This document shows, piece after piece, positions 4,129 through 43,359 of a stretch of 64,000 bases of DNA (positions are counted from its first letter, which is position 1; every line of letters starts with the position of its first letter). The position numbers were made by a program, and so were the translations under genes. A model generated the notes under the pieces. It made no database searches. It worked only from the letters and a program-made list of their open reading frames with translations, and was not told the origin of the DNA. The DNA comes from Candidatus Omnitrophota bacterium (GTDB lineage Bacteria > Omnitrophota > Gorgyraeia > Gygaellales > UBA12090): positions 52,018 through 116,017 of the forward strand of contig JAUSCZ010000033.1 of assembly GCA_030674475.1 (NCBI GenBank), in the 5' to 3' direction.

Positions 4129-4506
4129 ATGGCTAAGAAGATATTGATAGCGGATGATGATCCCGCGGTTTCCCAGACCTTAAAAACAGCTTTGGAAAGA
4201 AGCGGTTATGAGGCTGACATAGCCGCCAACGGCGAGGAATGTCTGCAGAAGGTTTTGATAAATAAGCCGGATTTACTGTTATTGGATATTATGATGCCGC
4301 GGATGGACGGATTTTCTTTTTTGGTGGCCATCAAAGAGTTAAGGGCTTTAACCGGGAGCGCGCCCCAGATGCCGGTGATGGTGATTACCGGCAAAGATAA
4401 TGAAGTAAACCGGAGCTTGATGACCCATGAGGATATTAAGGATTACATCTTAAAGCCGTTTGATCTGAAAGAGCTTTTAAGCAAGATTAAGAAAACCTTA
4501 GAGTGA
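4129..4506 (+). CDS. single-domain response regulator (CheY-like receiver)
   Basis: DDD...LLLLDIMMP...K receiver signature; 125 aa. Confidence 0.8.
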   Translation: MAKKILIADDDPAVSQTLKTALERSGYEADIAANGEECLQKVLINKPDLLLLDIMMPRMDGFSFLVAIKELRALTGSAPQMPVMVITGKDNEVNRSLMTHEDIKDYILKPFDLKELLSKIKKTLE

Positions 4507-7665: not shown

Positions 7666-7861
7666 CTTCTTAATCCGCGGTTTTGTTGGTATATCTAATT
7701 ATTCAACTCACAAATCAGCCCTGGGTAGTGCTATTGATAAAACTTTCCTTTACAGCCTTGGAAAAGGCAGGTATAATCAAATGTTATTATGGAGATTTTA
7801 TCTGCTTAAAGTAATTATTATGCCGCGTGTGATTTCCGCGGCAAGAAGTGAAAATTTATAC

Positions 7862-7936
7862 CGGGGCGTGGCTCAGTTTGGCTAGAGCACTTGAATGGGG
7901 TTCAAGAGGTCACAGGTTCAAGTCCTGTCGCCCCGA
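7862..7936 (+). tRNA. tRNA-Pro (anticodon GGG)
   Basis: Manual cloverleaf: acceptor CGGGGCG/CGCCCCG, D-arm GCTC..GAGC, anticodon stem CTTGA/TCAAG with loop ATGGGGT, T-arm ACAGG TTCAAGT CCTGT, discriminator A. Confidence 0.85.
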
Positions 7937-8020
7937 CTAAAATATTATCACGCGAAGGACTTGAACAAAAGAGGAGTTTGAGGGGAAAAGATGATTTTCC
8001 CCTCAAGAGACGCTTCTTTG
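7916..8020 (+). repeat. direct repeat copy 1 (tRNA-Pro 3' 21 nt + 84 nt downstream)
   Basis: Identical, with one mismatch, to 8103-8207. Confidence 0.9.
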
Positions 8021-8102
8021 ATAAAGCTGCGGGGGTGACAGCGAAGCCCTGATGACACATCGGGGCTGAGCGTCAGAGGGGGCGGGGAGCCCCCTATGAA
8101 AA

Positions 8103-8207
8103 GTTCAAGTCCTGTCGCCCCGACTAAAATATTATCACGCGAAGGACTTGAACAAAAGAGGAGTTTGAGGGGAAAAGATGATTTTCCCCTCAAGAAACGC
8201 TTCTTTG
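8103..8207 (+). repeat. direct repeat copy 2 (duplicate tRNA-Pro 3' end + downstream hairpin)
   Basis: ttcaagtcctgtcgccccgact... repeated 187 bp downstream of copy 1. Confidence 0.9.
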
Positions 8208-8246
8208 CGCCATCAATCATCAACTAAAACTGACGGAGGTGAAATT

Positions 8247-8603
8247 ATGGTTTACGCCGGATCTGAAAGAAGAAAACAGCCACGGGTGGCGGGAAAGTTT
8301 GTGGTGTCTTACCGGATCAAGGCCGAGGTGGACAACTATGACATTTCCCAAACTCGTAACTTAAGCCTGGGAGGAATGATGTTGACTACCAATCGGGAAT
8401 TTACTTTAGGGACGGTTTTGGCTATTGATATACGACTTCCCTTTTTCATTGACGCCATAAATCTAACCGGAAGGGTTATTGATTCAAAAGAGGTGGTCAA
8501 GGATTTGATTTATGATACCAGGATTCAGTTTTTAGAGATTGATTCCAAGTCCGCGGGCATAGTTAATGATACGGTGGGATATTATTTAAAGACCCAGAAA
8601 TAA
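8247..8603 (+). CDS. PilZ-domain protein (c-di-GMP binding)
   Basis: RRKQPR and NLSLGGMML motifs (RxxxR ... D/NxSxxG). Start placed at the internal ATG, because the upstream part of the ORF lies in the duplicated sequence. Confidence 0.7.
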   Translation: MVYAGSERRKQPRVAGKFVVSYRIKAEVDNYDISQTRNLSLGGMMLTTNREFTLGTVLAIDIRLPFFIDAINLTGRVIDSKEVVKDLIYDTRIQFLEIDSKSAGIVNDTVGYYLKTQK

Positions 8604-8652
8604 GCTTAAAAGAGAATTAATATAATGGCTCCCGGCGCGTGGGGAGCTATTT

Positions 8653-9957
8653 TTGAGTATCGCTATGGATAAGATTAATGTGGGATTAATTGGTTTTGGA
8701 ACGGTAGGTGAGGGCGTGGTCAGGGCATTGCTTACCAGGGAAAAGTTCCTGAAAGAGAAGGTTGGCGCGGGCCTGGTTTTAAAAGCCGTCTGCGATAAGG
8801 ATATCCGGCGTCCGCGTGAGATAAAGGTAAAATCGGGTATTTTAACCACGGATATAAATAGGATTTTAAATGATTCGGATATCCGGATTGTGGTTGAGCT
8901 TATCGGGGGGATACATCCGGCCAAGGAATTTATTTTGGAGGCTTTTAAGCGGGGTAAGCATGTGGTTACCGCTAACAAGGCCCTTTTGGCTGAGTGCGGT
9001 GAAGAGATTTTCCAGGCGGCCAGAAACTACAAGGTTGACCTTTATTTTGAGGCTTCAGTGGGAGGGGGGATTCCGATTATCAAGGCCCTGAGAGAGTCTT
9101 TGGGGGCTAACCATATTGATACCGTGCTGGGAATCGTCAATGGGACATCTAATTATATTCTTACCTCAATGGAAAAGGATGGCTTAAGTTTCAATCAGGC
9201 CCTTTTAGAGGCTAAGAAAAAAGGCTATGCCGAGAAAAACTCAGGCCTAGACATTAAAGGTTTTGACTCCGCGCATAAGCTGGCGATTTTGGCTTTGCTG
9301 GGCTTCGGCAAGAGCGTGAACATAAAAGATATTTATGTGGAGGGAATCGAAGATATCTCTTTAAGCGATATTGAATACGCCCGGGATTTTGGTTATGTGA
9401 TTAAGTTATTAGCTATTGCCAAGAATGTCCGCGGCCAGCTTGAGGTGAGGGTGCATCCCACACTTTTATCCAAAGAGCATCTGCTTTCTAATGTCAGCGG
9501 CGTCTATAATGCTATCTATGTGCACGGAGATTACGCGGGAGGAACGCTTTTCTACGGCAGGGGCGCGGGTTCACGCCCCGCGGCAAGCTCGGTGCTGGGG
9601 GATATAATTGATGTAGCCAGAAACATAAAGAGTGGTTCTGTGGGCCGCGTGCCGGTGTATACCGCGGATAAGACGATTAAGAATCTGCGTCCGATCAGCG
9701 AGATCGAAACCCGCTACTATCTTAGGCTTTCGGTTATTGACCGTCCGGGCGGTTTAGCCAGGATTGCCGATATTCTAGGCCGGCAGGGAATTTCTATCGC
9801 TTCGGTGACTCAAAAAGAAAGGCAGCAGGCCAGGATGGTTCCGGTAGTGATGATGACCCACGACGCCAGGGAAAAGAATATGCGCCTGGCTCTGGATGAG
9901 ATTGACAGACTTGACGCGGTTAAGAAAAAAACCGTGGCCATCAGGGTTGAGCGATAG
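8653..9957 (+). CDS. hom: homoserine dehydrogenase
   Basis: GLIGFGTVGEGV NAD-binding motif, central catalytic domain, C-terminal ACT domain. Confidence 0.9.
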   Translation: MSIAMDKINVGLIGFGTVGEGVVRALLTREKFLKEKVGAGLVLKAVCDKDIRRPREIKVKSGILTTDINRILNDSDIRIVVELIGGIHPAKEFILEAFKRGKHVVTANKALLAECGEEIFQAARNYKVDLYFEASVGGGIPIIKALRESLGANHIDTVLGIVNGTSNYILTSMEKDGLSFNQALLEAKKKGYAEKNSGLDIKGFDSAHKLAILALLGFGKSVNIKDIYVEGIEDISLSDIEYARDFGYVIKLLAIAKNVRGQLEVRVHPTLLSKEHLLSNVSGVYNAIYVHGDYAGGTLFYGRGAGSRPAASSVLGDIIDVARNIKSGSVGRVPVYTADKTIKNLRPISEIETRYYLRLSVIDRPGGLARIADILGRQGISIASVTQKERQQARMVPVVMMTHDAREKNMRLALDEIDRLDAVKKKTVAIRVER

Positions 9958-10120
9958 TGCGCTGTGAATTAATTATTAATATGACAGCGCACAGAGCAAT
10001 TGAGCAATAGAAAATAGAACAATAGAGAAAATAAAAGCTCAATTGCGGTCTAATGCTCAATTGTTCTATTGTTCAAAACAGCAGTTTTGCTATCAATAAC
10101 TAATTTCACAGAGCATTAGA

Positions 10121-11179
10121 ATGTATAGCGGCATAATTGAAAGATTTCGTAAACAGCTTCCTGTTTCTAGAGATACTCCGGTAGTCAGCCTCAAAGAAGG
10201 AAATACCCCTTTAATACTTTCGGATTGCCTGAGCCGAATTATAGGCAAAGGTTTTGAGGTGTATCTGAAATATGAAGGCCTGAATCCCACCGGTTCTTTT
10301 AAAGACCGGGGGATGACCATGGCAGTCTCAAAAGCTAAGGAAGCTGGGAGCAGAGTTATAATCTGTGCCTCAACCGGAAACACCTCGGCTTCGGCAGCCG
10401 CCTACGCCGCCAAGGCTGGCATTAAATGCGTGGTTTTAATCCCGGAGGGGGCGATTGCCCTGGGTAAGCTGGCTCAGGCCCTTATCCACGGGGCCAAGGT
10501 TCTGGCGGTCAGGGGAAATTTTGACCAGGCCCTTAGCTTAGTCAAGGAGATTGCCGCCAAATATTCAATTACTTTGGTAAATTCCCTTAATCCTTATCGC
10601 TTAGAAGGGCAGAAGACCGCGGCCTTTGAAATTTGCGAGGATTTAGGATGTGCCCCGGATTTTCAATGTATTCCGGTAGGCAACGCCGGAAACATCACTG
10701 CTTATTGGAAAGGTTATAAGGAATATAAACAGAACGGTAAGATTGAATTTCTACCTAAAATGCTGGGATTTCAAGCTCGGGGAGCAGCCCCGATTGTGAA
10801 AGGGCACCCCATAAAAAATCCTAAAACTATCGCTACCGCCATCAGGATAGGTAACCCGGCAAGCTGGCGTCAGGCGGAGGCGGCCCGCGATGAATCCCGC
10901 GGTTTAATTGACGCGGTCAGCGACGCTGAGATAATCTCGGCCTATAAATTACTGGCTTCTCGTGAAGGCATCTTTGTTGAGCCGGCCTCGGCGGCCTCAG
11001 TTGCCGGTTTATTGAAATTAGTCAAAAGCGGATATTTTAAGAAATCACCAATCACCAAGATAGTTTGTATTCTGACTGGCCATGGCCTTAAGGATCCGGA
11101 GCGGGTAATTAAAGTTATCAAAAGACCCAAAGTGGTTAAGGCGGAATTGAAAGCTGTTCTTAAAGAAATTGGATATTAA
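10121..11179 (+). CDS. thrC: threonine synthase
   Basis: PLP lysine motif SFKDRGM; sits downstream of hom. Confidence 0.9.
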
Positions 11180-11846
11180 AGCAGAGCTAAGAACTAAGAA
11201 TCCAAAATTAAGAAATAAGCGGGTTTTGATTACTGCCGGGCCGACCTGGGTTCCTGTAGATGAGGTGAGGGTTATTTCAAATATAGCCAGCGGGGAGACC
11301 GGAATCCTGCTGGCGGAAAAACTGCTTAAACATGGAGCCGGGGTAACTCTGGTCCTGGGTCCGGTAGAGTCCTGTAGTATCAGTGGTTCGACTACGCCCA
11401 GGATTGATAAAAAGATTAAGCTGGTAAGATTTAAATTCTTTGATCAGCTAAGAAGCCGGCTTAAAAAAGAACTTCTTTCTAAAAACTACGATTGTGTCAT
11501 CCACTGCGCGGCAGTCTCTGATTTTAGGCCGTTAAATCCAATCAAGGGAAAACTTGCTTCGAATAAGACCCATAATCTGAAATTAACCGTTTTACCTAAG
11601 ATAGTCAACGAAATACGGAAATTACACCCCGCGGCAAAATTAGTGATGTTTAAGCTGGAGGCGGGTATTTCCGATATTGAGTTGATCCGCAGGGCCCGCG
11701 AAGCCTTGCTTAAGGCTCGAGCGGATTTAATAGTGGCCAATAGAATTACTCCTTCCTATAAAGCTTTTATTCTTAATAAGAATGAAACCCTGGGCTGTGT
11801 CCATTCCAAGAAAGAATTAGCGGATAAATTGGCTGATTTAATTTAG
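11169..11846 (+). CDS. coaB: phosphopantothenate--cysteine ligase (stand-alone CoaB domain)
   Basis: [25 protein letters not shown] matches the CoaB motif; ~225 aa. Confidence 0.7.
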
Positions 11847-13153: not shown

Positions 13154-14422
13154 GTGGGAAGACTGATTGTGCAGAAATACGGCGGCTCTTCGGTAGCTAA
13201 TCCTGAAAGAATCAAGAATGTGGCTCGCCGGGTGGTTGACTATAAGAAAAAAGGCAATGATTTGGTGGTGGTGGTTTCGGCCTTAGGAGACACTACCGAC
13301 GAGTTGATTGAGCTGGCCGCTAAAATTTCAGACAATCCTCCGGAAAGGGAGATGGATATGCTGCTTTCTACCGGTGAGCAGATTTCAGTTGCCCTTCTGG
13401 CTATGGCCATTCAGGAATTGGGGTTTGAGGCAATTTCTTTAACCGGCTCGCAGGTGGGCATTATTACCGATACCGTGCACACCAAGGCCCGGATTGTCAA
13501 AATTGAGGCCCAGAAACTGCGCCAGGAACTAAAAAAAGGCAGGATTGTGATTGTCGCCGGTTTCCAGGGGATGACCCCGGATCAGGATATTACCACCCTG
13601 GGAAGAGGGGGCTCGGATTTAAGCGCGGTGGCCCTGGCTAAGACCCTGGGGGCTGATGAGTGCGAGATCTATACCGATGTTGAGGGGATATTTACCGCTG
13701 ATCCGCGCGTTGAGCCCAGGGCGCGTAAACTTGAAAACATCACTTATGATGAGATGTTGGAGATGGCCTCATTAGGCGCCCAGGTAATGCAGGCGCGCTC
13801 AATCGAGGTGGCTAAGAAATTTGATGTGCCGATACATGTCAGGTCCTCATTTTCACGAAAACGAGGGACAATGATTATCAGGGAGGTAAAGAATATGGAA
13901 GATGTTTTGGTTACCGGGGTAACCTTAAATAAGAATGAGTCTAAAATTACTGTGTGCGATGTCCCGGATAAGCCCGGTATCGCCGCCAGGATTTTTACTC
14001 AGCTTTCCGAGGGCGGCATCAATGTGGATATGATTGTGCAGAATGTCTCGCATACCAAGCAGACTGATATTTCTTTTACTGTTCCTAAAAACGACGGGGC
14101 CAGGGCAATCAGGTTGACTAAAAAGGCGGCCAGCGGCTTGGGCTATGGGAAGCCCAACCACGGCCCTCTGGCCAGCGGCTTGGGAGAGCTTCAGGTGTTG
14201 GAGGATTCGGATATCGCTAGGATTTCCATAGTCGGGGTAGGGATGAAAACTCATTCCGGGGTAGCCGCTAAAATGTTTGAAACCCTGGCTGAGGAGAAGA
14301 TAAATATTGAGATGATTTCTACCTCCGAGATCAGCATCTCTTGTATCATCAAGAAAAAATCCGCCGAAATCGCCCTCAGGGCCCTGCATCATAAATTCGG
14401 CTTGGATAAAATAAATAAATAA
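13154..14422 (+). CDS. lysC: aspartate kinase with ACT domains
   Basis: IVQKYGGSS start motif; AGGAGG RBS before GTG 13154 (the ORF is open from 13136); two C-terminal ACT repeats. Confidence 0.9.
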   Translation: MGRLIVQKYGGSSVANPERIKNVARRVVDYKKKGNDLVVVVSALGDTTDELIELAAKISDNPPEREMDMLLSTGEQISVALLAMAIQELGFEAISLTGSQVGIITDTVHTKARIVKIEAQKLRQELKKGRIVIVAGFQGMTPDQDITTLGRGGSDLSAVALAKTLGADECEIYTDVEGIFTADPRVEPRARKLENITYDEMLEMASLGAQVMQARSIEVAKKFDVPIHVRSSFSRKRGTMIIREVKNMEDVLVTGVTLNKNESKITVCDVPDKPGIAARIFTQLSEGGINVDMIVQNVSHTKQTDISFTVPKNDGARAIRLTKKAASGLGYGKPNHGPLASGLGELQVLEDSDIARISIVGVGMKTHSGVAAKMFETLAEEKINIEMISTSEISISCIIKKKSAEIALRALHHKFGLDKINK

Positions 14423-14546
14423 AAGACATCCTACTAATGAGAAAGAAACGGGGATGTCTGATTACAACGATTAAAAGGCAGATTACAGAGATTAAAACAG
14501 GTATAATCTTTATGTTTATCTCTGAAGATTACACCAGAGAGGGACT

Positions 14547-16120: not shown

Positions 16121-18943
16121 ATGATTGAGTTGAATAGCCACTACGAACCTAAAGAGGTTGAGGATAGGATATATGCCTTTTGGCAGGAGCGGAATTTATT
16201 TGCCACCAAGGCCAATCCTGGCAAGAAGCCTTTCTGCATTGTTATCCCTCCGCCTAATGTTACCGGTATCTTGCATATGGGCCATGCCTTGAATAATACC
16301 TATCAGGATATTTTAATCCGCCTGAACCGGATGCGGGGTTTTGAGTCTTTATGGATGTCCGGTACCGACCACGCCGGAATTGCCACCCAGAATGTAGTTG
16401 AGCGTAAGCTGGCCAAGGAAGGCTTAAAGCGCCAGGATTTAGGCCGGGATAAGTTTTTAGAGAGGGTTTGGCAGTGGAAGGAGGAATACGGCTCAACCAT
16501 AATTAAACAGCTGAAGAAATTAGGGTCTTCCTGTGATTGGGAGCGCACCAGATTTACTATGGATGAGGAGTATTCTCAAGCGGTGCGGGAGGTTTTTGTC
16601 AGGCTGTGGGATAAGGGCCTGATTTATCAGGGGGATAGGATCATCAACTGGTGCCCCCGCTGCCAGACCGCCTTATCCGATGAAGAGGCAGTGCATCATG
16701 AAATTAACGGGAATTTGTATTACATAAAATATCCAATTAAGCCGACAGCTGACAGCCGACAGCTGACAGCCGACTATATTGTGGTGGCGACTACCCGGCC
16801 GGAGACAATGCTGGGGGATACGGCGGTGGCGGTTAATTCCAAAGACCGGCGGTATAAAAAACTTATCGGCCAGACGGTTATTTTACCTTTACTTGAGCGG
16901 GAAATTAAAATTATCGCCGATGAATTCGTGGATTCAAAATTCGGCACCGGCGCGGTAAAGGTTACTCCGGCGCATGATCCTAATGATTATGAGATGGGCA
17001 AGCGCCATAATCTGGAATTTATCAACATAATGCATCCGGACGCGCTCTTGAATGTCAATGCCGGGGAATACGCGGGCAGGGACAGGTTTGAGGCCCGGGA
17101 GGCCATAATAGAAGATTTAAGAGCAAGAAAGCTTCTGGAGAAGATAGAACCGCATACACATTCGGTCGGTCATTGTTACCGCTGCAATACCATAGTTGAA
17201 CCGTATTTATCCCGGCAGTGGTTTGTGAAGATGAAACCCTTGGCTGAACCGGCAATTAAGGCAGTTAAAGACGGCACAATTAAATTCTACCCTAAGCGCT
17301 GGACGAAGGTATATTTGAATTGGATGGAAAACATCCGCGATTGGTGTATCTCCCGGCAGATTTGGTGGGGACATCGGCTTCCTGTTTATTATTGCAAGAA
17401 ATGTCAGGAAACAGGAAGCCTAAATTCAAAAGTCAAAAGTCAAAACTCAAAATCCGCGTTTAATGGGATAACAGTATCAAAAGATAAATTAGATAAATGC
17501 CCTGTGTGCGGGTCGGGGGATATTTATCAGGATGAAGATGTCTTGGATACCTGGTTTTCTTCCTGGCTGTGGCCTTTTGCCACCTTTGGCTGGCCGTTTC
17601 AGCCCTCAGTCGAAAGCCGAAAGCCGAAAGCCGAAAGCCATAACCCGCAAGCTGACTTAGATTATTTTTATCCCACCTCGGTTTTAGTTACTGCTCCGGA
17701 GATAATTTTTTTCTGGGTGGCCCGGATGATTATGGCTGGTTTTGAGTTTATGGGTAAAGAACCGTTTCGGGATGTCTATATCCATGGCACGGTCCGGGAT
17801 ATCGAAGGTAAAAAGATGTCAAAATCATTAGGCAATATCATTGACCCCTTAAATATTATCGCTCAATACGGCAGTGATGCCTTAAGATTCAGCCTGATGT
17901 CTTTAACCTCCGTGGGTCAGGATGTCTATCTATCGGAGCAGAAATTTGAACTGGGCAGGAATTTTGCCAATAAGCTTTGGAACGCCTCGCGTTTTTCATT
18001 GATGAATCTGGATTTGAAGGTGGTGAATACGGATCTTTGCCTGTTTTTTAAAAAAGAAAAATTGGAATTGCCGGAGCGCTGGATTTTGAGCCGATTTTAC
18101 TCGATGCTTCAATCTTTGAATAAAGCTTTGGACAGCTATAACTTTAATCAGGCCTCTGGTATTCTTTATGAATTTACCTGGCATGAATTCTGCGATTGGT
18201 ATTTAGAATTGGCCAAGCCAATTCTAGTAAACAGAGAACCCTTCGACTCCGCTCAGGGCAGGCAGAGTGCAGAGAACAGAAATACCCAGATAGTTTTATA
18301 TAAAGTTTTAGAAAAGACCCTGAGGTGCCTGCATCCTTTTATGCCGTTTATTACTGAGGAAATCTGGCAGAAATTGATAGTAGGGGCAGGTTCAGAACCT
18401 GCCCCTACCGAAAGCATTATGACTCAGCCCTGGCCGCACATCCAGAAGCAGATGATTGATAAAAAGGCCGAAGGCGCTATGCGAATAGCCATTGAGGTTA
18501 TTACCGCGATCCGGAATCTCAAGGCCCAAATGAAACTCACTTCGGCTCAAATCGTCAAGGTCAGCTTGTTAACCAAAGACCAGAAGACTCAAAAGATTTT
18601 GGATCAGGTCTCTAAATATATTATCAATCTGGCTAAGCTAGAAGGGTTGAATATCGGTTCGGAAGATTTGACGCGTAAAAGAGGCGTCAGCGCTATTGCC
18701 GGGAACATCCAGGTGTTCTTGGAACTGGAGGGGTTGATTGATATAGAAAAAGAGATAGAAAAACTAAATAAAGAAATAGAAAGCTTAAGTAAGGATGTAA
18801 AGGCTAAGGAAGCCCGCTTAGGCAATAAGGAGTTTAATGAGAAGGCCCCTCCTGAGATTGTGGAAAAAGAGAAGGAATTATTAGCCGCGGGTAAAGAAAA
18901 GTTAACTCACCTGAATAAAATCATCCATGAGCTTAAAAAATAA
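16121..18943 (+). CDS. valS: valine--tRNA ligase
   Basis: HMGH and KMSKS motifs, C-terminal coiled coil. Contains three in-frame short tandem repeat insertions. Confidence 0.95.
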   Translation: MIELNSHYEPKEVEDRIYAFWQERNLFATKANPGKKPFCIVIPPPNVTGILHMGHALNNTYQDILIRLNRMRGFESLWMSGTDHAGIATQNVVERKLAKEGLKRQDLGRDKFLERVWQWKEEYGSTIIKQLKKLGSSCDWERTRFTMDEEYSQAVREVFVRLWDKGLIYQGDRIINWCPRCQTALSDEEAVHHEINGNLYYIKYPIKPTADSRQLTADYIVVATTRPETMLGDTAVAVNSKDRRYKKLIGQTVILPLLEREIKIIADEFVDSKFGTGAVKVTPAHDPNDYEMGKRHNLEFINIMHPDALLNVNAGEYAGRDRFEAREAIIEDLRARKLLEKIEPHTHSVGHCYRCNTIVEPYLSRQWFVKMKPLAEPAIKAVKDGTIKFYPKRWTKVYLNWMENIRDWCISRQIWWGHRLPVYYCKKCQETGSLNSKVKSQNSKSAFNGITVSKDKLDKCPVCGSGDIYQDEDVLDTWFSSWLWPFATFGWPFQPSVESRKPKAESHNPQADLDYFYPTSVLVTAPEIIFFWVARMIMAGFEFMGKEPFRDVYIHGTVRDIEGKKMSKSLGNIIDPLNIIAQYGSDALRFSLMSLTSVGQDVYLSEQKFELGRNFANKLWNASRFSLMNLDLKVVNTDLCLFFKKEKLELPERWILSRFYSMLQSLNKALDSYNFNQASGILYEFTWHEFCDWYLELAKPILVNREPFDSAQGRQSAENRNTQIVLYKVLEKTLRCLHPFMPFITEEIWQKLIVGAGSEPAPTESIMTQPWPHIQKQMIDKKAEGAMRIAIEVITAIRNLKAQMKLTSAQIVKVSLLTKDQKTQKILDQVSKYIINLAKLEGLNIGSEDLTRKRGVSAIAGNIQVFLELEGLIDIEKEIEKLNKEIESLSKDVKAKEARLGNKEFNEKAPPEIVEKEKELLAAGKEKLTHLNKIIHELKK
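16741..16774. repeat. tandem repeat (cagctga/cagccga 14-mer x ~2.4) inside valS
   Basis: Direct reading; encodes TADSRQLTAD. Confidence 0.9.
17422..17452. repeat. heptamer tandem repeat (aaattca/aaagtca/aaagtca/aaactca) inside valS
   Basis: Direct reading; encodes LNSKVKSQNSKS. Confidence 0.9.
17611..17638. repeat. heptamer tandem repeat (cgaaagc)x4 inside valS
   Basis: Direct reading; encodes ESRKPKAES. Confidence 0.9.
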
Positions 18944-19811
18944 ATTATCCGAATACGCGCTTCAGGACTTAATCCGTAACGCCCTCAAGGAGGATATCGG
19001 CTCCGGGGATGTTACTACTGAACTTTTGATTCCCAAAAATAGGGTAATCAAGGCGGTGATAATTTTAAAGGAAAAAGCAGTGGTCGCGGGTTTAGAAATT
19101 GCCCAAAAAGTATTCAAGGTGATAGATAAAAATATCCAATTTAAGGCAATTTCAGCAGATGGTTCCGGGGAGAAGCCGGGTAAAATAATCGCGAAAATCC
19201 AAGGGAAGGCCGGTTCAATTTTATCCGGGGAGAGGACTGCCTTAAATTTCCTCAGCCATTTATCCGGCATAGCCACCGTTACTAGGAGTTTTGTGAATGA
19301 GGTTAAGCCTTACAAGGCAAAGATTATGGATACCCGTAAGACCATCCCCGGCCTTAGAGAATTAGAGAAATACGCGGTGGCCCTAGGCGGAGGCTGTAAT
19401 CATCGTATGGGGCTCTGGGACGCGGTTTTGGTCAAGGATAATCACATCGCGGTTTTGAAAGCGGGTGCGAGAGGGATAAATATTAAGGATATCGCCCGTC
19501 TGGTAAAAGAAAAGAAGCCCAAAGGGATGAAAACGGATATAGAAGTGCGGAATTTAAAGGAATTCCAGGAAGTTCTGGAGATTCCCCCGGACATAATTAT
19601 GTTAGACAATATGGATATAAGTCAGATTAAGAAGGCTGTGGCGATGCGCGATGCCCAAGGCCTAAGGCCTAAGGTCCAAATAGAGGTTTCCGGCGGCGTC
19701 CACCTAGGCAATGTCAAGATAATCGCCAAAGCCGGGGTAGATATAATTTCTATCGGCGCCCTGACCCATTCAGCCAAAGCCGTAGACATGTCTTTGGAAG
19801 TTACAGGATAA
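18927..19811 (+). CDS. nadC: nicotinate-nucleotide pyrophosphorylase (quinolinate phosphoribosyltransferase)
   Basis: RTALNFLSHLSGIAT motif, DNH motif, ~290 aa. Confidence 0.9.
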   Translation: MSLKNKLSEYALQDLIRNALKEDIGSGDVTTELLIPKNRVIKAVIILKEKAVVAGLEIAQKVFKVIDKNIQFKAISADGSGEKPGKIIAKIQGKAGSILSGERTALNFLSHLSGIATVTRSFVNEVKPYKAKIMDTRKTIPGLRELEKYAVALGGGCNHRMGLWDAVLVKDNHIAVLKAGARGINIKDIARLVKEKKPKGMKTDIEVRNLKEFQEVLEIPPDIIMLDNMDISQIKKAVAMRDAQGLRPKVQIEVSGGVHLGNVKIIAKAGVDIISIGALTHSAKAVDMSLEVTG

Positions 19812-19814: not shown

Positions 19815-19846
19815 AATTATGGGGGGTCAGAATTATGGGGGGTCAG
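19815..19846. repeat. 16-mer direct repeat x2 (aattatggggggtcag)
   Basis: Direct reading; located in the nadC-uvrB intergenic region. Confidence 0.9.
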
Positions 19847-21852: not shown

Positions 21853-21910
21853 ATTTGAATAGGGTTTCACCAAATTCCCTCTTCTTTCAGAGAAAGGGTT
21901 GTCGGTTCAC

Positions 21911-21958
21911 CAAATTCCCTCTCCCTCCGGGAGAGGGCTAGGGCGAGGGGGAATGAAA
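21911..21958. repeat. GC-rich hairpin element family C (aattccctc...gggagagggctagggcgagggggaa), copy 1; likely the uvrB terminator
   Basis: 9 bp perfect stem ccctctccc/gggagaggg. Homologous copy at 53393-53447. Confidence 0.7.
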
Positions 21959-21965
21959 CGATTTT

Positions 21966-21995
21966 CTTGACAGTGTATTCAATTTTGAGTACAAT
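21966..21995 (+). promoter_or_regulatory. sigma70-like promoter (TTGACA-17-TACAAT) for the 22016 gene
   Basis: Consensus hexamers with correct spacing. Confidence 0.5.
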
Positions 21996-22015
21996 CGTAC
22001 TCAAAAGGAGCAGAA

Positions 22016-22588
22016 TTGTTAAATCTTTATATCACCAAATCCAGAATCAGGCAGGATCTGCTTGCCCTATTTTTCACCAATCCTTCTCAAAGGTATTACC
22101 TCAGAGAGATTCAACGTATTCTCGGGCATTCCGCCGGCACTATCCGCAGGGAGCTTTTAAGATTCCAGGAAGACAGCTTATTCACCACCAAGAGAAACGG
22201 CAATCTTTTATACTATTCGTTAAACAGGAAGCATCCTTTATTTGATGAATTAAAAAGTATTATTTCAAAAACAATCGGCATGGAAGGAAGCCTGAAAAAC
22301 GCGTTAGTATCGCTTAAGGGAATAAGTTTTGCCTTTATTTACGGGTCGTTTGCCTCCAGGAAAGAAAAATCCGCGAGCGATATTGACTTGATGGTAATCG
22401 GGGACCCTGATGCGTCTTTACTTAATGAGAAAATAGCTCAGTCGGAAAATAAGCTGAAGAGAGAAATAAACCACCTGGTGTATTCTTTAGAAGAATACAA
22501 GGCGAAGAAAAAGACAAAAAGCGGTTTTATCACGGATATTCTGAATAATCCCAAAATAATGCTGATAGGACAGGAAAGTGAATTATAA
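22016..22588 (+). CDS. winged-HTH (ArsR-like) + minimal nucleotidyltransferase fusion protein
   Basis: YYLREIQRILGHSAGTIRRELLRF HTH; GSFASR...DIDLMVIGD Pol-beta nucleotidyltransferase motif. Confidence 0.65.
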   Translation: MLNLYITKSRIRQDLLALFFTNPSQRYYLREIQRILGHSAGTIRRELLRFQEDSLFTTKRNGNLLYYSLNRKHPLFDELKSIISKTIGMEGSLKNALVSLKGISFAFIYGSFASRKEKSASDIDLMVIGDPDASLLNEKIAQSENKLKREINHLVYSLEEYKAKKKTKSGFITDILNNPKIMLIGQESEL

Positions 22589-22605
22589 TACCAGGAAAAC
22601 TTTCC

Positions 22606-24414
22606 ATGAGTAACCCTAAATATAAAAATAGCCGCGGCCGGCTGCGCATTGGCGACGATTGGAACGCGATAACAATTATCGCGCTTTCGCAAAACAATCC
22701 TTTAAAGGCAATTGCTGAATTGGTGGAAAATAGCATTGACGCCCAGGCCGGACATATTACCATTATCCGCGGTAAAGAACACGGAGAGCACTACCTTAAA
22801 GTTATCGACGATGGACAGGGTATTCCTTGCGATGGGGAAGGTATTCCTGATTTTAAGTATGTGGCAACCCATATCTGTGATTCGCTGAAACGGCGTTTAA
22901 AAGAAGGAGGCTTCCAAAACATTCAGGGAGAATTCGGTATCGGCCTGCTTAGTTTTTGGACCGTCGGACATAAACTATTGATGGTCTCTTCCGGCAAAGA
23001 TGGCAAGGCCTACCAAATGAATATGGAGAAAGGTAAGCCAGGTTATTCAATATCCCACCGTCCCCATCTGCTACCCATAAAAGGAACGCAGTTAACCATA
23101 GCCTCTTTGCTCGCGGGAATACGTATGCTCAGCGGCGAAAAAATTCAACGATATTTAGCCTCCGAGTTAAGAGACCGGATTCGTCATTCAGGCGTGAAGA
23201 TTAAGATTATTGACCGAACCGCTCGCGCGGAGTTTGAGGTTGAACCGCGCCAATATGAAGGCCAGCTTATCCATGATCTTCCTTTGCTTACAACGGCTTT
23301 CGGTGAACCTATTTATGTGGAGATATATATCGCGGGAAAAAATAGCGAAAACAGCGTTAGCCTTTTTCGTTCAGGGACACGGGTGCTCCCTAATATCTCT
23401 ATACTTGATTTCTTTCAATGTGAGCCCTGGACTTCCGGTTATTTTGAGGGAATTATTGATGCTCCCTTCTTACATCTTACGCCCGGCACCAGAGACGGAA
23501 TAATTCATGATGAACTATTGTCCGGATTCTGTGATTCTATAGCGCCTCTTAAAGAACGGCTGACGGCAATTGCTTTGGAGCAAGGCAAAGCTGAAGAAGA
23601 GCGGATGAGCAAGAATATACTCCGTTCCGTGCAGAAGGCATTCCTTGATGCTATGACCGCTTTGCCGCCCGAAGAATATGATTGGTTTGGTATCGAGCAA
23701 AAGAACGCGCATCGTTCGTCCACTGACAACAATGATATCGCGAAGGAAAATGGCGTAATGATGGTTCCTGACGCGCTAAGGCAGGGAGAGAAGAAAAGCG
23801 GGCAGAAAGAGTTTTTCGAAATCGCCGGGCCGCTCTTTTCCACCCGTATCCAGCCAGGTTCGGCACTGGTGCAGGTGGGCAAGACGAAACCTTTCCGGGC
23901 TATCGGATTAGATCGCAACAAACGTCAGGTAGAAGAGAATCTCTCATATCTATGGTGTATTACGGAAGGAAAAGGAGATCTCGATAAATTAGACGGCGAG
24001 ATGGTTGTTTTTAACGCCCCCCTGGAACCCGGCTTGAGTAAATTAAAACTGGTGATTCAACGAGACGATATACGTTGCGAGACAGAAAGCATCGTTACCG
24101 TTGTGGATTCTTTGTTTAAGGTTTCGGCTGAAAACAGTGAATTCCCACGCAAGGGATTACCCGGCTATACGCTAGAAAGCGCCCCTGGATATACCTGGCG
24201 CTCGCGCTATGACGAAAAACGCAATATTGTTATCATCAACAGCGGCCATCGCGATTTCATTTACGCCGGACGCGAGAAAGCCAGAAAACTGCGCTATATC
24301 TGCCGCCTCTTCGCCAAAGAATTGATTTTGCAAAATTTTGCCGGTCTGTCTTCCGGAGAACTCCTGGAGCGTCTGGTCGAATTATCATTATACACTGAAG
24401 AGAATTTGCGCTGA
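22606..24414 (+). CDS. GHKL (Bergerat-fold, MORC/HSP90/MutL-like) ATPase, 602 aa
   Basis: N-box ELVENSIDA, G1 DDGQGI, G2 GEFGIGLLS. Confidence 0.7.
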   Translation: MSNPKYKNSRGRLRIGDDWNAITIIALSQNNPLKAIAELVENSIDAQAGHITIIRGKEHGEHYLKVIDDGQGIPCDGEGIPDFKYVATHICDSLKRRLKEGGFQNIQGEFGIGLLSFWTVGHKLLMVSSGKDGKAYQMNMEKGKPGYSISHRPHLLPIKGTQLTIASLLAGIRMLSGEKIQRYLASELRDRIRHSGVKIKIIDRTARAEFEVEPRQYEGQLIHDLPLLTTAFGEPIYVEIYIAGKNSENSVSLFRSGTRVLPNISILDFFQCEPWTSGYFEGIIDAPFLHLTPGTRDGIIHDELLSGFCDSIAPLKERLTAIALEQGKAEEERMSKNILRSVQKAFLDAMTALPPEEYDWFGIEQKNAHRSSTDNNDIAKENGVMMVPDALRQGEKKSGQKEFFEIAGPLFSTRIQPGSALVQVGKTKPFRAIGLDRNKRQVEENLSYLWCITEGKGDLDKLDGEMVVFNAPLEPGLSKLKLVIQRDDIRCETESIVTVVDSLFKVSAENSEFPRKGLPGYTLESAPGYTWRSRYDEKRNIVIINSGHRDFIYAGREKARKLRYICRLFAKELILQNFAGLSSGELLERLVELSLYTEENLR

Positions 24415-24590
24415 TTGCAGGCCGGGTTACCCTACTAACAGGAGCAAATTGACCCGCGGAAGATAAAAAGCGAGAATGCCAAGATTCAAGACCCCTTTTA
24501 TCCTATCCACGAGAGCAGATTTGCCAACTTAGAGACAAATTTTACCCAACAGACAAGCTTAGCGCCATGTTTGTTGGGTAATTTATTTTG

Positions 24591-24650
24591 TTGACATTTG
24601 TTACCTAACAAGTTAAATTATAGTATGGTTTGTTAGGTAACAGGAGGACT
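24591..24650 (+). promoter_or_regulatory. promoter with inverted-repeat operator (ttgttacctaacaa / ttgttaggtaaca) upstream of small protein A
   Basis: TTGACA ... TATAGT flanked by a 13 nt inverted repeat. Confidence 0.5.
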
Positions 24651-24651
24651 T

Positions 24652-24972
24652 ATGAGAGGTGTTATAAAAGGAGTATTGGCGGAAGAATTGGAAAATTCTC
24701 TTCGCATGAAGAAGGAATACGAAGGAGCTTTGAGGAATTTGCCTAAAGGGTGTCTTGCGGTAAGAAAAATACGAGGCCATGAGTATTGTTACCTGGCAGA
24801 AAGAGTGGATAAGAAAGTAAAGTATATTTACAAAGGTAAACTATCCGCAGAAGAAAAGAAAAGGTATGAAGAGGCCAAAGAATTAAGGGCTAAATACAGG
24901 AAATTATTGTCTCAAGTCAAAAAGCAAATAAGATTCTTAAGGAGTTCTCTGCGTGGAAAAGAAGCAGTCTGA
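24652..24972 (+). CDS. small basic protein, paralog A (putative regulator/antitoxin-like partner of the nucleotidyltransferase)
   Basis: ~60% identical to the 27362-27679 product; operator palindrome upstream. Confidence 0.6.
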   Translation: MRGVIKGVLAEELENSLRMKKEYEGALRNLPKGCLAVRKIRGHEYCYLAERVDKKVKYIYKGKLSAEEKKRYEEAKELRAKYRKLLSQVKKQIRFLRSSLRGKEAV

Positions 24973-25256
24973 TTTATGCCTTGAAATCTTAAGGAGGCTC
25001 CATAAGGCCGGTATCTTGGATGATTTAATCCTTATAGGCAGTTGGTGCGTATATTTCTATAGAGAATATTCCAGCAATGTGTCCTACATGGATCAAACCA
25101 CTATGCGAAATCAGTCATTCAGGACAAAGAAAGACAGAAAACTTGAACTTGTTTTCAACCGAAAAAGAAATTTCCAGGGGATGGCGTAAGATTGCCGTTA
25201 AGGTGGTTGATATTTTTGGTAATGATACGATAAGAGTAATTAAGGTGAATATATAA
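24953..25256 (+). pseudogene. decayed fusion: N-terminal ~45 codons of nucleotidyltransferase paralog A joined to a 3' remnant of a type III mod gene
   Basis: MEKKQSDLCLEIL...LIGSWCVYFY matches the start of the 27660 protein. SFRTKKDRKLEL and, in another frame, RKIAVKVVDIFGNDTIRVIKVNI* match the C-terminus of the 29779-32064 Mod. Confidence 0.7.
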
Positions 25257-25299
25257 GTTTTTATATGGCCAATATATGATAAAAGGGGGGGGGTAATGC

Positions 25300-26991
25300 A
25301 TGAAAAAAAATCTTTTGGATACAAAAACAGCTTCATGGGGGGAGTTAATTAAGAATGGAAGAACCTTTATGGTCCCAAGATTTCAAAGAGATTATTCGTG
25401 GGAGGAAGAGCAATGGGATGATCTTTGGTATGACTTGGTTAATTTAGAGGAAGAAGATTTTCATTATATGGGGTATTTAGTATTACAAAATAGCCCCACG
25501 AATGAATATCTGGTTATCGACGGACAGCAGAGATTGACGACTTTAAGTATTATTGCTTTAGCGGTGATTCAACACATCGCGGAATTGATTGAGAAAGGTA
25601 AGGACCATAAAAACAACGAAGAGCGCAAGAAATTGTTGATGGACTCGTTTCTTGGATATAAAGATCCGGCTTCTTTGGTAGCCAAGAGCAAATTAACGCT
25701 TAATCGTAATAATAATGATTTTTATCAAAGTTACTTATTGCGTTTTAGAAAACCAACGAGTAAAAGTAAACTCAAGCCTTCTGAAAAACTTCTTATTAAC
25801 GCTGTCGAATATTTTTATGAAAAGATAAAGTTTAAGTTCGGTCAGGATATTTCAGGTGAGAAATTGGCTGATTTTCTTGATAAGAAAACGGCGGATAAAT
25901 TTATATTCACGTTTATTACTGTTGATAATGATTTGAATGCTTACAAAGTATTTGAAACACTCAATTCAAGGGGGGTGAGGCTATCTCCCACGGATTTGTT
26001 AAAAAATTATTTGTTTATGGTGGCGGCTCAAAAAGGCGAAACTGATATCGATCAAGCTGAAAGACAATGGCAAAGTATTAATAATATTTTAGGTGGAATA
26101 GAGCTTACCACATATCTAAGGCATTTTTGGAATTCGAGAAATATGATCGCCAGAAAGCAGAATTTATTTAAAGTTGTTAAGAATTCAATTACTGACGCGG
26201 ATCAGGCCTTCGCTTTATTGGATGAACTTGAAAATAACGCGCAACTTTACGCGGCTTTTTCTCAGCCAGAAGATGAGCTTTGGAAACAGGCTGAGCAAAG
26301 CGAATATATTAGACAATTAAAATTATTCGGCGTGACCCAGTGTTATCCTCTTTTGTTGGCGGCTTATAAGAAGTTTGACCCGAATGAATACGCTCGTTTA
26401 TTGAGATGCTGTTGTGTGATTGCTTTTCGATACAATGTGATTGGCGGGCTAAATCCCAATAAGCTGGAAGATGAATACAGCAAAACGGCTCAGGATGTTT
26501 ATGCCGGCACGCTGAAAAACGCGCGGGAAATATTTCATAACCTGAAATCGGTTTATGTCATTGATGAAGAGTTTGAAAGCTCATTCGCCGCGAAAAGTAT
26601 TACCACCAAGGGAAAGGGCGCGAAATTAGTCAGATATATCCTTTTCTCATTGGAAAATCAGATAAGCAATAAAAAATATGATTTTAGTGATAGCTCCGTA
26701 ACTATCGAGCATATATTACCGGAAAATCCTTCTCAAAGCTGGGAGTCAAATTTTACTATTGAAGAGCAAATTCAATTTGTATTTCGTTTAGGCAATTACG
26801 CGCTTTTGGAAGAATCAAAAAATAAAATGTGTCAAAACGACTTTTATCCGACAAAGAAAGAAATTTACAAAACAAGCAGTTATAAAATAACAGCCCAAGA
26901 TAGCGTATGCGATGAATGGAACCCCGAAAGAATTTCAGAGAGACAAAAGAAGTTGGCAAAATACGCTAAAACTGTCTGGAAATTTGAGTGA
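25300..26991 (+). CDS. GmrSD-like type IV (modification-dependent) restriction enzyme, DUF262 + DUF1524
   Basis: N-terminal DUF262 (ParB-like) motifs (...VIDGQQRLTT), C-terminal His-Me/HNH-like SVTIEHILPEN. Confidence 0.75.
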   Translation: MKKNLLDTKTASWGELIKNGRTFMVPRFQRDYSWEEEQWDDLWYDLVNLEEEDFHYMGYLVLQNSPTNEYLVIDGQQRLTTLSIIALAVIQHIAELIEKGKDHKNNEERKKLLMDSFLGYKDPASLVAKSKLTLNRNNNDFYQSYLLRFRKPTSKSKLKPSEKLLINAVEYFYEKIKFKFGQDISGEKLADFLDKKTADKFIFTFITVDNDLNAYKVFETLNSRGVRLSPTDLLKNYLFMVAAQKGETDIDQAERQWQSINNILGGIELTTYLRHFWNSRNMIARKQNLFKVVKNSITDADQAFALLDELENNAQLYAAFSQPEDELWKQAEQSEYIRQLKLFGVTQCYPLLLAAYKKFDPNEYARLLRCCCVIAFRYNVIGGLNPNKLEDEYSKTAQDVYAGTLKNAREIFHNLKSVYVIDEEFESSFAAKSITTKGKGAKLVRYILFSLENQISNKKYDFSDSSVTIEHILPENPSQSWESNFTIEEQIQFVFRLGNYALLEESKNKMCQNDFYPTKKEIYKTSSYKITAQDSVCDEWNPERISERQKKLAKYAKTVWKFE

Positions 26992-26994
26992 TTT

Positions 26995-27222
26995 ATGGCG
27001 CCGCGCGCGCAAGGTTATGAAAAACTATTCCCGCCTTTTGTGCCGGAGCTTAGGAAGCGGGTTAAGGAGTGGCGGGATAAGGGCTACGAGGGGGCGAGCG
27101 CGACATCAAGGGCTCTTTTAAGCTGGCGGTTCAAAGAAGACCTCTTGCTTATGGAATATAAGCTTACAGTGAGAGAAAGACGAGATAATGTCTACTGTCC
27201 GGGTCTGACCCCTAAAACCTAA
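26995..27222 (+). pseudogene. 5' fragment of a type III res gene (duplicate of the 33113 gene N-terminus)
   Basis: GYEKLFPPFVPELRKRVKEWRDKGYEGASA; ~90% nt identity to 33205-33345, then diverges and stops. Confidence 0.7.
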
Positions 27223-27361
27223 AACCGCTTGAAAGTTACCATACTTAGTATGACATTCCTGCATTTGTATGGTAACTTTTTTGTTTGACAATGGTTGTCA
27301 TACAATATATACTATTATATAGTTTGTATGGTAACTAATTCAATCGAACGGAGAGTTTAAT

Positions 27362-27679
27362 ATGGGAGTCATAAAAGGAGTGCTTAAAGAAGAACTCGAG
27401 AATTCTATACGCATGAAAAGCGACTATGAGCGTGAATTGGCAAAGCTGCCTAAAGGCAGCCTCATTAAGAAAAAGGTTAAGGGGCATGAGTACTATTATC
27501 TTTTGTTGCGGGAGAAAGGGAAGGTAAGATTCATCTATAGAGGGAAAGTGTCTGATGAAGAAATAAAAAAATACAAAGAAGCAAAAGAATACAGGGCTAA
27601 GTACAGAAAATTATTATCTCAGGTAAAAAAACAAATTAGATTCTTAAGGAGCACTCTGCGTGGAAAAGAATCAATATGA
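27362..27679 (+). CDS. small basic protein, paralog B
   Basis: Paralog of the 24652 product; upstream inverted repeats agttaccatac / gtatggtaact. Confidence 0.6.
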   Translation: MGVIKGVLKEELENSIRMKSDYERELAKLPKGSLIKKKVKGHEYYYLLLREKGKVRFIYRGKVSDEEIKKYKEAKEYRAKYRKLLSQVKKQIRFLRSTLRGKESI

Positions 27680-28352: not shown

Positions 28353-28451
28353 TCTATGTAGTGTATGTATAAAGGAATAAGGGGTTATGCCTCAAAACTC
28401 CAAAATAGTCCTTGACGTTGGAATTGATAAGAGATTGGATAAATTGTAAAT

Positions 28452-29732: not shown

Positions 29733-29778
29733 ACCAATTTAAGCGTCTCTACAATGTTACCCTCGGCTGATCCAGGAT

Positions 29779-35797: not shown

Positions 35798-35837
35798 AAG
35801 AAAGTCTGAAGAAGCAACTTGGACAAAGAATTGAAAT

Positions 35838-43354: not shown

Positions 43355-43359
43355 GATAA

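Follow-up and report, generated by a model that had tools for sequence, protein, structure and literature searches.

Three arrays of heptanucleotide repeats lie in frame inside valS, the valine–tRNA ligase (ValRS) gene of a Candidatus Omnitrophota bacterium, within the 64,000-nucleotide stretch of contig JAUSCZ010000033.1 that was analyzed here (the window). We read these blocks as heptanucleotide microsatellites, of the type known as bacterial long simple sequence repeats (LSSRs), that arose by a heptamer-biased, slippage-type process and were filtered by translation, and we put the probability of this reading at about 70%. The evidence consists of an excess of period 7, the placement of the arrays in loops, a difference of three units between relatives, one- and two-unit alleles in a related lineage, the avoidance of stop codons in a phase-specific manner, and local seeds.

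The process would act on DNA without regard to coding and would, in this Omnitrophota lineage, strongly prefer 7-nt units. Its most likely form is slipped-strand mispairing in replication or repair, as the unit-step alleles and the literature suggest, which would create, lengthen, shorten and homogenize short arrays out of local near-repeats. Arrays within genes would survive only at permissive places (surface loops of ValRS, the n-region of a signal peptide, protein termini), only where the net gain or loss of length comes in steps of three units (21 nt, 7 codons), and only if none of the units yields a stop codon in its own phase. Each surviving array would then add a hydrophilic peptide with a 7-residue period and no required function.

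Heptamer arrays inside valS

Omnitrophota are an uncultured phylum whose cells are mostly ultra-small. The window has a G+C content of ~45%, and its list of open reading frames (ORFs) places nearly every gene on the + strand, including valS (16121-18943, 940 aa), a single essential housekeeping enzyme gene that hosts the three arrays and two further small inserts. Judged from its sequence, the valS product is a class I valyl-tRNA synthetase with HIGH and KMSKS motifs and predicted editing, anticodon-binding and C-terminal coiled-coil domains. In the translation, the two motifs are found as HMGH (residues 52-55) and KMSKS (residues 565-569), and the protein matches the Thermus thermophilus ValRS (PDB 1GAX) over its full length (E 2.9e-219). 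Its closest matches are proteins of Omnitrophota metagenome-assembled genomes (MAGs) from groundwater metagenomes, with at most 86% identity by BLASTP (90% in the MAFFT alignment), and these carry PF00133, PF13603, PF08264 and PF10458.

Tandem Repeats Finder (TRF) and a scan for perfect runs both placed the three blocks described in the initial annotation within the valS ORF, where they encode the peptides given there. All three are on the + strand and consist of head-to-tail 7-nt units, with 4.1-5.0 copies and 85-100% match. Array 1 (site 1, 16740-16774) was reported by TRF as a 14-mer, (AGCCGAC AGCTGAC)x2.5, with 100% match, and equals five heptamer units of AGCCGAC or AGCTGAC. It encodes TADSRQLTAD (residues 209-218) in a loop between the CPRC zinc knuckle and the TTRPET strand of the editing domain, where 1GAX has an 8-residue gap. 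Array 2 (site 2, 17422-17452; x4.4) runs through the units AAATTCA, AAAGTCA, AAAGTCA and AAACTCA and ends with AAA; in the zinc-binding insertion, its product LNSKVKSQNSKS (residues 434-445) separates the two Cys pairs. Array 3 (site 3, 17611-17652) is (CGAAAGC)x4.1 with 100% match up to 17639, followed by two decayed units, CATAACC and CGCAAGC. It encodes ESRKPKAES (residues 498-506), at a position where 1GAX has a 15-residue gap. The rotated unit of array 3, AGCCGAA, is one mismatch away from the unit of array 1, and a search with the pattern AGCNGANAGCNGA gave 6 matches where 0.2 were expected.

To place the inserts, ValRS was aligned with 22 Omnitrophota orthologues and, separately, with the solved 1GAX sequence. 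All five insert sites (residues 209-218, 434-445, 498-506, 707-714 and 754-763) coincide with gaps in the Thermus enzyme, and the same five sites are length-variable, hypervariable columns among the 22 orthologues. The flanks of the inserts are invariant and comprise the Cys ligands and the TTRPET, WWGHR and DVLDTWFSS motifs. The blocks do interrupt otherwise conserved regions, as had been proposed. An AlphaFold2 model of ValRS, built from a 23-sequence alignment, was dropped for calling surface loops (mean pLDDT 54.6, pTM 0.45); as it was too poor, loop placement was judged from the 1GAX alignment instead.

The two remaining inserts are not heptamer arrays. At site 4, a 24-nt in-frame segment (CCCTTCGACTCCGCTCAGGGCAGG, 18239-18262, + strand) without tandem repetition encodes PFDSAQGR (residues 707-714). 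It is present once in the window and, among the compared loci, in the window only: the relative L211 has no counterpart, and L001 and L004 have heptamer arrays at that site (these contigs are introduced below). The segment is flanked by GAGAAC/AACAGA-like copies that might be a duplicated target. At site 5, a perfect 14+1+14 palindrome (GTAGGGGCAGGTTC, A, GAACCTGCCCCTAC; 18380-18408, + strand, inverted repeat I12) encodes VGAGSEPAPT in frame (residues 754-763), and a hairpin is predicted for its DNA (-15.3 kcal/mol, z -8.8). This palindrome is kept in L001 and L211, where the loop base alone varies, and is replaced by arrays elsewhere, namely (AGGGTTC)x2.7 in L002 and (AGCYGAC)x5.6 in L004, the latter having the unit of window site 1. 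The 29-nt palindrome is single-copy in the window and occurs in the compared loci at the orthologous valS site only. Accordingly, a search for dispersed copies of the palindrome and of the FDSAQGR insert within the window and the compared loci supported no dispersed family.

Period-7 excess across the window

In the perfect-run scan, the window contained 7 perfect arrays of period 7 and 0-1 for each other period between 2 and 24. The chance expectation for period-7 arrays, from 200 third-order Markov simulations of the window, has a mean of 0.11 and a maximum of 2. Unit families recur among these arrays: AGCYGAM is found at sites 1 and 3 of valS, and AAAKTCA at position 729 and at site 2.

The heptamer repeats reported earlier at a lipoprotein start, at the 3′ end of an ABC permease gene and at 44994-45035 were all identified as heptamer arrays by TRF. 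The first of these, (AAATTCA)x4.7 (729-761, + strand), directly follows the ATG of the lipoprotein gene 726-1238 and lies in frame in the n-region of the signal peptide (MKFKIQNSKFKITALVMVFLMIISLTGC), to which it adds KFKIQNS. This exact repeat-bearing N-terminus is also found in the NCBI MAG protein P0229/MDO8748891.1 (locus tag Q7J72_07265). The permease array, (AACCAGT)x3.9 (43329-43355, + strand), covers the last codons and the TAA stop of the permease gene 42553-43344 and then the spacer before the ATPase gene (ATG at 43360). The third location, 14 nt upstream of a marC-family gene, is indeed heptamer-based and contains two adjacent arrays, (AAACCAT)x3.6 and (AACTATC)x2.9, but their partner at 44952-44982 had been missed: the whole structure (44952-45035) is an inverted pair in which (TAGTTTA-like)x4.4 is separated from these two arrays by an 11-nt spacer. 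It corresponds to inverted repeat I3 (23 nt, 87% complementarity) and is predicted to fold as a bulged hairpin (z -3.5).

Further arrays, absent from the initial annotation, were found at 19653-19674 ((GCCTAAG)x3.1, + strand, within nadC 18927-19811), at 11043-11058 ((AATCACC)x2.3, + strand, within thrC 10121-11179) and, in degenerate form, in the thrC-coaBC spacer (11183-11219, + strand, AGAACTA-like x5.3, 71% match), all by TRF. An inverted pair of 8-mer arrays (9993-10026/10049-10074) was also detected. With its flanking palindrome, it forms a 156-nt intergenic insert (9957-10112; inverted repeats I5 and I11, fold z -3.4). No array in the window matched an RNA family in an Rfam scan.

The duplication at 19815-19846 (nadC-uvrB spacer, + strand), which had been listed as a repeat of the same style, turned out to consist of a 16-nt unit (AATTATGGGGGGTCAG) present twice and is not heptamer-based. 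The segment was duplicated independently in the window (16 nt x2) and in L001 (14 nt x2, 4461-4488) and is single-copy in L004 and L002. Perhaps this spot is prone to duplication, or perhaps it is a regulatory site ahead of uvrB.

Turnover of arrays between relatives

The window was compared with syntenic contigs of relatives (L001, L002/L003, L004 and L211), of which L001, L002/L003 and L004 are 85-92% identical to it in DNA. The relatives' loci were fetched via valS, which biases the array densities in them upward, and the taxonomy of the metagenome matches is tentative. A scan of GTDB genomes yielded no relative closer than 63% identity and served as a control set.

At site 1, the five units of the window align with AGCCGAC x2 in L001 between identical flanks, and the codon alignment gives a difference of exactly 21 nt, that is, 3 units. 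The insert at site 2 is swapped for other heptamer arrays in L001, L002 and L004. More generally, the same valS loops hold (AGCTGTC)n and (AAGCAGA)n in L001 and L004, (AGTCCAC)n and (ATGGACT)n in L002, and (AGTCYCC)n in L004, and orthologues with 85-90% protein identity carry unrelated peptides or none at these sites. The initial annotation had asked whether orthologues might have the same peptides without nucleotide repetition; they have instead different peptides, each from its own heptamer array.

L211 lacks inserts at sites 1-3 and keeps quasi-repeats there. Its site 1 reads AAGTTGACAACTGACTAT, a quasi-repeat without an insert, and AAGTTGACAACTGAC at this site could act as a seed. At site 3 it has only TCGCAAGCGGAA, a possible local seed, with CGCAAGC at the 3′ edge, and this ancestral CGCAAGC persists at the 3′ edge of array 3 in the window. 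At the permease-ATPase junction of L211, the genes overlap at ATGA, the permease ends in LREQK* and there is no array; GAACAGAAATG sits at the corresponding position.

Similar turnover is seen outside valS. In thrC, L002 has (GCGCCAG)x3.6 at the same codon positions as the (AATCACC) array of the window, 15 nt longer, and the thrC-coaBC spacer of L002 and L211 holds an inverted (AGCTGTC)n...(GCTGAAA)n pair. At the nadC site, L004 has (CAAGGCC)x4.4 at the same position, and L001 and L002 are non-repetitive and of equal length. Lipoprotein orthologues of equal length carry MKLKTQNLKLKI, which, judged from the protein alone, back-translates to an (AAACTCA)-type array; relative to this orthologue, every unit of the lipoprotein array would appear to have changed together. 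Other lipoprotein orthologues have different 7-aa periods or no array.

Perfect arrays in the 84 kb available from seven close and more distant Omnitrophota relatives numbered 24 for heptamers and 3 for octamers, and other periods gave none. Period 7 thus dominates in the relatives as it does in the window, and the arrays occur in thrC, nadC, the lipoprotein and permease genes and spacers as well as in valS, in line with the repeat-generating process acting genome-wide that had been suggested. The habit is patchy: other Omnitrophota had 5 arrays in 181 kb (2 of 10 other species representatives), and 70 loci from other phyla had 11 in 1.06 Mb, or ~1 per 100 kb.

The valS neighborhood is a hot spot of gene insertion as well as of repeats. 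L002 has extra genes, absent from the window, at 6821-9991 (between leuA and valS, encoding an AAA ATPase, DUF1257 and DUF2997) and at 13739-14376 (between nadC and uvrB).

Length instability and frameshift alleles

Members of 90%-identity protein clusters differ mainly at the valS hot spots. Three independent assemblies of a related Omnitrophota lineage, L207, L206 and L208, whose ValRS (P0048) is 63% identical to that of the window, are 99.7% identical over 7.3 kb. Their sole internal indel is in a (GCAGCCT) array of valS, with 3, 2 and 1 units, respectively. In the x2 and x1 alleles (L206 4318-4331, L208 4318-4324), valS falls into two ORFs, and no other change restores the frame. At site 5, an octamer array also varies in length, with 5 units in L209 and L210 and 4 units in L205 (5266-5300), where valS is frameshifted; P0041 has 24 nt fewer at this array and is still in frame. 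The broken valS in these consensus contigs has three candidate explanations, namely a minority allele chosen by the assembler, a second gene copy, or recoding.

The lipoprotein gene also varies in length. One 90%-identity cluster contains both the allele MKVKSIIYF (164 aa) and, 7 residues longer, MKVKSQKSKVKNIIYF (171 aa); the gain corresponds to 21 nt, or three heptamer units, and came from a local seed. Its orthologues include many N-terminal length alleles and N-terminally shortened calls such as P0232. The arrays thus behave as hypermutable microsatellites.

Selection on translation

As 7 is not a multiple of three, translation of a heptamer array passes through each of the three phases that its unit can take. 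In the codon alignment of array 1, the TGA-containing unit AGCTGAC occurs in the two harmless phases only, and the one unit that falls in the dangerous phase, AGCCGAC, gives CGA there. Likewise, the unit of the nadC array that falls in the TAA phase is GCCCAAG, read as CAA. At both sites, C replaces T in the potential-stop units in the dangerous phase only. The permease array has no such option: (AACCAGT)n cannot avoid TAA and therefore terminates its ORF. As the A-rich units have stops in every phase of the opposite strand, only one orientation is possible within genes.

The inserted peptides are hydrophilic and rich in Lys, Ser and Glu. Since stops are avoided in a phase-specific manner and the peptides of orthologues are unrelated, selection keeps the frame open and does not preserve the peptide. 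The valS arrays are not harmless but a mutational hazard that selection holds in frame. The tolerance of valS toward the repeats, which had been proposed from the sequence, is incomplete: one-unit variants break the gene in the lineage with the 63% identical product. Because such single-unit changes occur and destroy the frame, the arrays constitute a standing hazard and not a switch.

Inverted pairs and competing explanations

Many arrays in the relatives, together with 44952-45035 and 9993-10074 in the window, are inverted pairs of the form [unit]n, spacer, [approximate reverse-complement unit]m, several of them able to form hairpins, a feature that the initial annotation did not contain. 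The pairs at the valS loops of the relatives mostly fold as periodically bulged hairpins (z -3.3 to -6.7; z -1.7 for the site 3 pair of L004). One type, (NNTCAGC)n...(GCTGAAA)n, is found twice in L001 and once in L004 (valS site 2), and also in the thrC-coaBC spacer of L002 and L211. A metagenome scan for (AGCTGTC)x3 gave at least 120 matches; the 80 examined span a G+C content of 0.37-0.73, and 92 had enough flank for polarity to be counted. Among the matches listed, the spacers of the AGCTGTC-family pairs measure 4-153 nt, and the (NNTCAGC)n...(GCTGAAA)n pairs of L001, L002, L004 and L211 have the same polarity as these metagenome pairs. In L097, L110, L142, L124 and L136, all metagenomic, (AGCTGTC)n is read in frame as SCQLSAVS in RnfC, RimO/MiaB-type, TilS, PyrK-like and RluA-type genes. 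These organisms are unrelated, and the lineage of the window is thus not alone in having heptamer arrays in frame within housekeeping genes.

Several observations weigh against slippage filtered by translation as the full account. In L002, one inverted pair recurs at a second valS site, and the A-rich spacers of the two copies are similar. Between L209 and L205, which are 98% identical, AGTCACA-type units give way to AGTCCAC-type units jointly at site 1 and site 3; their mismatches cluster in the arrays, and the 750 bp of DNA between the two sites are ~99% identical, which rules out a recombination tract as the source of the joint switch. For the AGCTGTC family, partners from the reverse-complement family within 250 nt lie downstream and never upstream (24:0, from the 92 countable sites among the matches listed), that is, with convergent polarity. 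The recurring unit families of the window could mean copying between sites, or only shared composition. In addition, no slippage event was observed in the genome of the window itself, slippage leaves the preference for 7 nt unaccounted for, array densities in the relatives carry the bias of loci fetched via valS, and the reading does not account for frameshifted valS in consensus short-read assemblies of strains that are 98-99.7% identical.

Some of these observations would fit copies or decayed remnants of tiny non-autonomous palindromic mobile elements (miniature inverted-repeat transposable element (MITE), REPIN or small dispersed repeat (SDR)-like) with heptamer-array arms, inserted in frame, the valS arrays of the window being one-armed remnants. 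The paired arrays around A-rich spacers at the same valS loops, most of which fold, the two copies in L002, the recurrence of the (NNTCAGC)n...(GCTGAAA)n type, the joint unit switch and the uniform polarity all agree with this. So do the single CCCTCAG that precedes array 3, which is identical to the first left-arm unit of L001, and the 156-nt insert at 9957-10112, which is absent from L002 as a whole block. We nevertheless consider such elements an unlikely origin, although for the inverted pairs a contribution from them, or from copying between sites, is a rival to be taken seriously. Hairpins with terminal inverted repeats are found at 44952-45035, at 9993-10074 and in the inverted pairs of the relatives, but not in valS of the window, where arrays 2 and 3 have no inverted partner array and do not fold (z +0.34 and z +1.08) and the self-pairing of array 1 is limited to a short CAGCTG. 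Local seeds exist in the array-free L211 at site 1, at site 3 and where the permease gene ends. The codon alignments show no evident target-site duplications, a scan of 50 window ORFs detected no transposase, RAYT or reverse transcriptase, and the unit-step length alleles need slippage anyway. Dispersed copies that share internal non-repeat sequence were absent from the window, and in the small sample of relatives the two L002 copies with similar A-rich spacers were found. A second possibility, which we regard as quite doubtful, is that the arrays are not products of simple slippage but were left by a directional process, so far unrecognised, of copy-and-paste or of hairpin-templated repeat writing, which may be enzyme-driven and common to several phyla. 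This possibility would draw on the 24:0 polarity, on the simultaneous unit switch at two valS loops and on the frameshifted valS in consensus assemblies, which could hint at recoding or some other tolerance of such alleles. If true, this process would install convergent inverted pairs, homogenize unit families across distant sites of one genome and keep rewriting the surface loops of essential proteins.

That the arrays are contingency tracts, in which the gain or loss of one unit switches a gene by phase variation, is very improbable. A heptamer tract in the 5′ coding region of neuO of Escherichia coli works in this way (PMC13001214), the 729-761 tract directly follows a start codon in a gene whose orthologues show many N-terminal length alleles and shortened calls, and out-of-frame valS alleles do exist in consensus contigs of the related lineage. 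For valS, however, this is excluded by the essential nature of the gene, as the initial annotation had argued, the OFF state being lethal; thrC and nadC encode metabolic enzymes and not surface or modification functions, many arrays are intergenic, and the tracts are short (3-5 units) compared with the 3-53 repeats, most commonly 20, of neuO (PMC13001214). By analogy, the lipoprotein gene 726-1238 may be switched on and off in the manner of NeuO. It is harder still to believe that the peptides are selected, functional, lineage-specific extensions of ValRS, for example for binding tRNA or a partner, with incidental nucleotide repetition. Aminoacyl-tRNA synthetases are known for acquiring idiosyncratic insertions, and the hydrophilic composition of the peptides, rich in Lys, Ser and Glu, would suit such a role; against this stand the unrelated or missing peptides in orthologues of 85-90% identity, the occurrence of arrays of this style in spacers and at the ends of genes, and the perfection of the nucleotide repeats, which implies a recent origin. 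Finally, the arrays are almost certainly not artefacts of assembly or sequencing, a concern raised at the outset for which nothing specific speaks beyond the origin of the window from a MAG. They are at most 35 nt long and thus shorter than any read, they keep valS in frame, and independent assemblies reproduce the relatives' arrays without indels (17 mismatches in 20 kb between L002 and L003, none in 8.9 kb between L209 and L210); the repeat-encoded lipoprotein N-terminus of P0229 is identical as well. Heptamer-biased slippage filtered by translation remains our preferred reading of the valS arrays.

Relation to known heptamer repeats

With their tandem units, their excess over expectation and whole-unit copy-number differences between relatives, the arrays belong to the known class of bacterial heptanucleotide simple sequence repeats (SSRs), here in a new phylum. 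In a survey by Mrazek et al. 2007, as it is cited in PMC4679880 and PMC4692102, heptanucleotides are the most abundant class of long SSRs in many bacteria, and slippage linked to polymerase contacts is the proposed hypothesis. The likeness extends to the dominance of the 7-nt class, its sporadic distribution across lineages and the variation in length between close relatives. As far as these citing papers relate the survey, genic repeats there tend toward units that are multiples of three, whereas heptamers dominate even within ORFs here, and Omnitrophota were not part of that work.

Other heptamer systems resemble the window in part. The dispersed GGGGA(C/T)T arrays of Nostoc, the GGGAATC arrays of Xanthomonas and the cyanobacterial STRR heptamers are likewise numerous and vary in length and sequence between close species (PMC4692102). 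Xanthomonas genomes contain 70-75 convergent inverted pairs of GGGAATC arrays each, comparable to the pairs seen here (PMC4692102). Those systems, from other phyla, are mostly intergenic and G-rich, with the potential for G-quadruplexes, whereas the units in the window are rich in A or follow the pattern AGCNGAN, and several of its arrays are in frame within essential genes. Geobacter metallireducens has 49 elements of four heptamers, some within genes (PMC2700814). They share with the present arrays the number of ~four heptamers, the occurrence both within and between genes and the possibility of several per gene, but form one unit family annotated as putative regulatory RNA (PMC2700814), whereas many families are found here and turnover at orthologous sites is demonstrated. 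The TAACTGA repeats of marine Beggiatoaceae, cyanobacteria and Bacteroidetes lie just upstream of starts or overlap stops, their orientation in ORFs is limited by stop content, and their occupancy of termini has been explained by tolerance, all as in the window; unlike it, they all belong to one unit family, for which a part in regulating translation has been proposed (PMC4679880). The window has diverse units and insertions in mid-gene loops.

The neuO tract of E. coli K1 (AAGACTC) is also a 5′ coding heptamer tract in which three units add 7 residues, and copy numbers that are not divisible by 3 turn the gene OFF (PMC13001214). It differs in being a demonstrated switch in a dispensable surface-modification gene, whereas valS is essential and its arrays have 4-5 units. 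Rickettsia palindromic elements are found as in-frame insertions in housekeeping genes, and these elements and intragenic MITEs resemble the arrays as small hairpin-forming repeats at structurally tolerated sites (PMC10969869). The Rickettsia elements are, however, ~150 bp long with a conserved peptide per family (PMC10969869), compared with heptamer-array arms of ~25-35 nt and no conserved peptide here.

L004 carries (AGTCCCC)n, and this we take to be a rotation of the STRR1 unit CCCCAGT. The canonical STRR units, found in heterocystous cyanobacteria, are CCCCAGT, TTGGTCA and CAACAGT, and small dispersed repeats of Nostoc, reportedly described by Elhai and coworkers in 2008, are said to be embedded in heptamer arrays. 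Strict membership in the cyanobacterial STRRs is ruled out by the Omnitrophota host and by the differing window units, the likeness being one of behavior only. A literature search with narrow terms returned nothing on such repeats in Omnitrophota, and the main survey of the phylum does not mention repeats. To our knowledge, there is no earlier description of several in-frame arrays in one essential synthetase, of stop repair confined to one phase, of natural unit-step frameshift alleles or of a strict polarity of pairs.

Other features of the window

A 21-nt unit present x3.3 (GAAGATGTCCGGGATAAGAAA, 6061-6129, 83% match) is in frame in ORF 5485-6519, which has no Pfam family; this unit is not 7-periodic. 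Upstream of the same ORF and downstream of a response-regulator gene, the segment 4662-4748 matches the c-di-GMP-I-GGC riboswitch exactly at the Rfam gathering score (59 bits). A 112-nt segment between the aspartate kinase gene and leuA (14424-14535) is absent from L002.

A defence-type island extends over ~21900-35800, with G+C dropping to 0.34-0.39 at 24-30 kb. Its genes encode a nucleotidyltransferase, an HATPase_c_3 protein, GmrSD (25300-26991), an N6/N4 DNA methylase (29779-32064), a DUF3800 protein and a ResIII/TnsA-like helicase-nuclease (33113-35797). The L002 orthologue of the nucleotidyltransferase gene is paired with an HEPN gene. The island is absent from the syntenic L211, in which uvrB is followed directly by birA and coaX.

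Implications

The arrays offer what we read as a natural example of a sequence-blind mutational bias filtered by translation, visible within one gene as a three-units-or-nothing rule, the repair of stops (TGA to CGA, TAA to CAA) and survival in loops only. They widen the host range of heptanucleotide SSRs to Omnitrophota and explain the length differences between Omnitrophota orthologues at fixed hot spots. For practical work, they can split genes in MAG annotation and are candidate markers for strain typing. The convergent polarity of the pairs and the coordinated switching of units could reveal a mechanism beyond slippage. For the organism, such arrays would continually supply essential proteins with new loop sequence, and would also give rise to lethal frameshift alleles.

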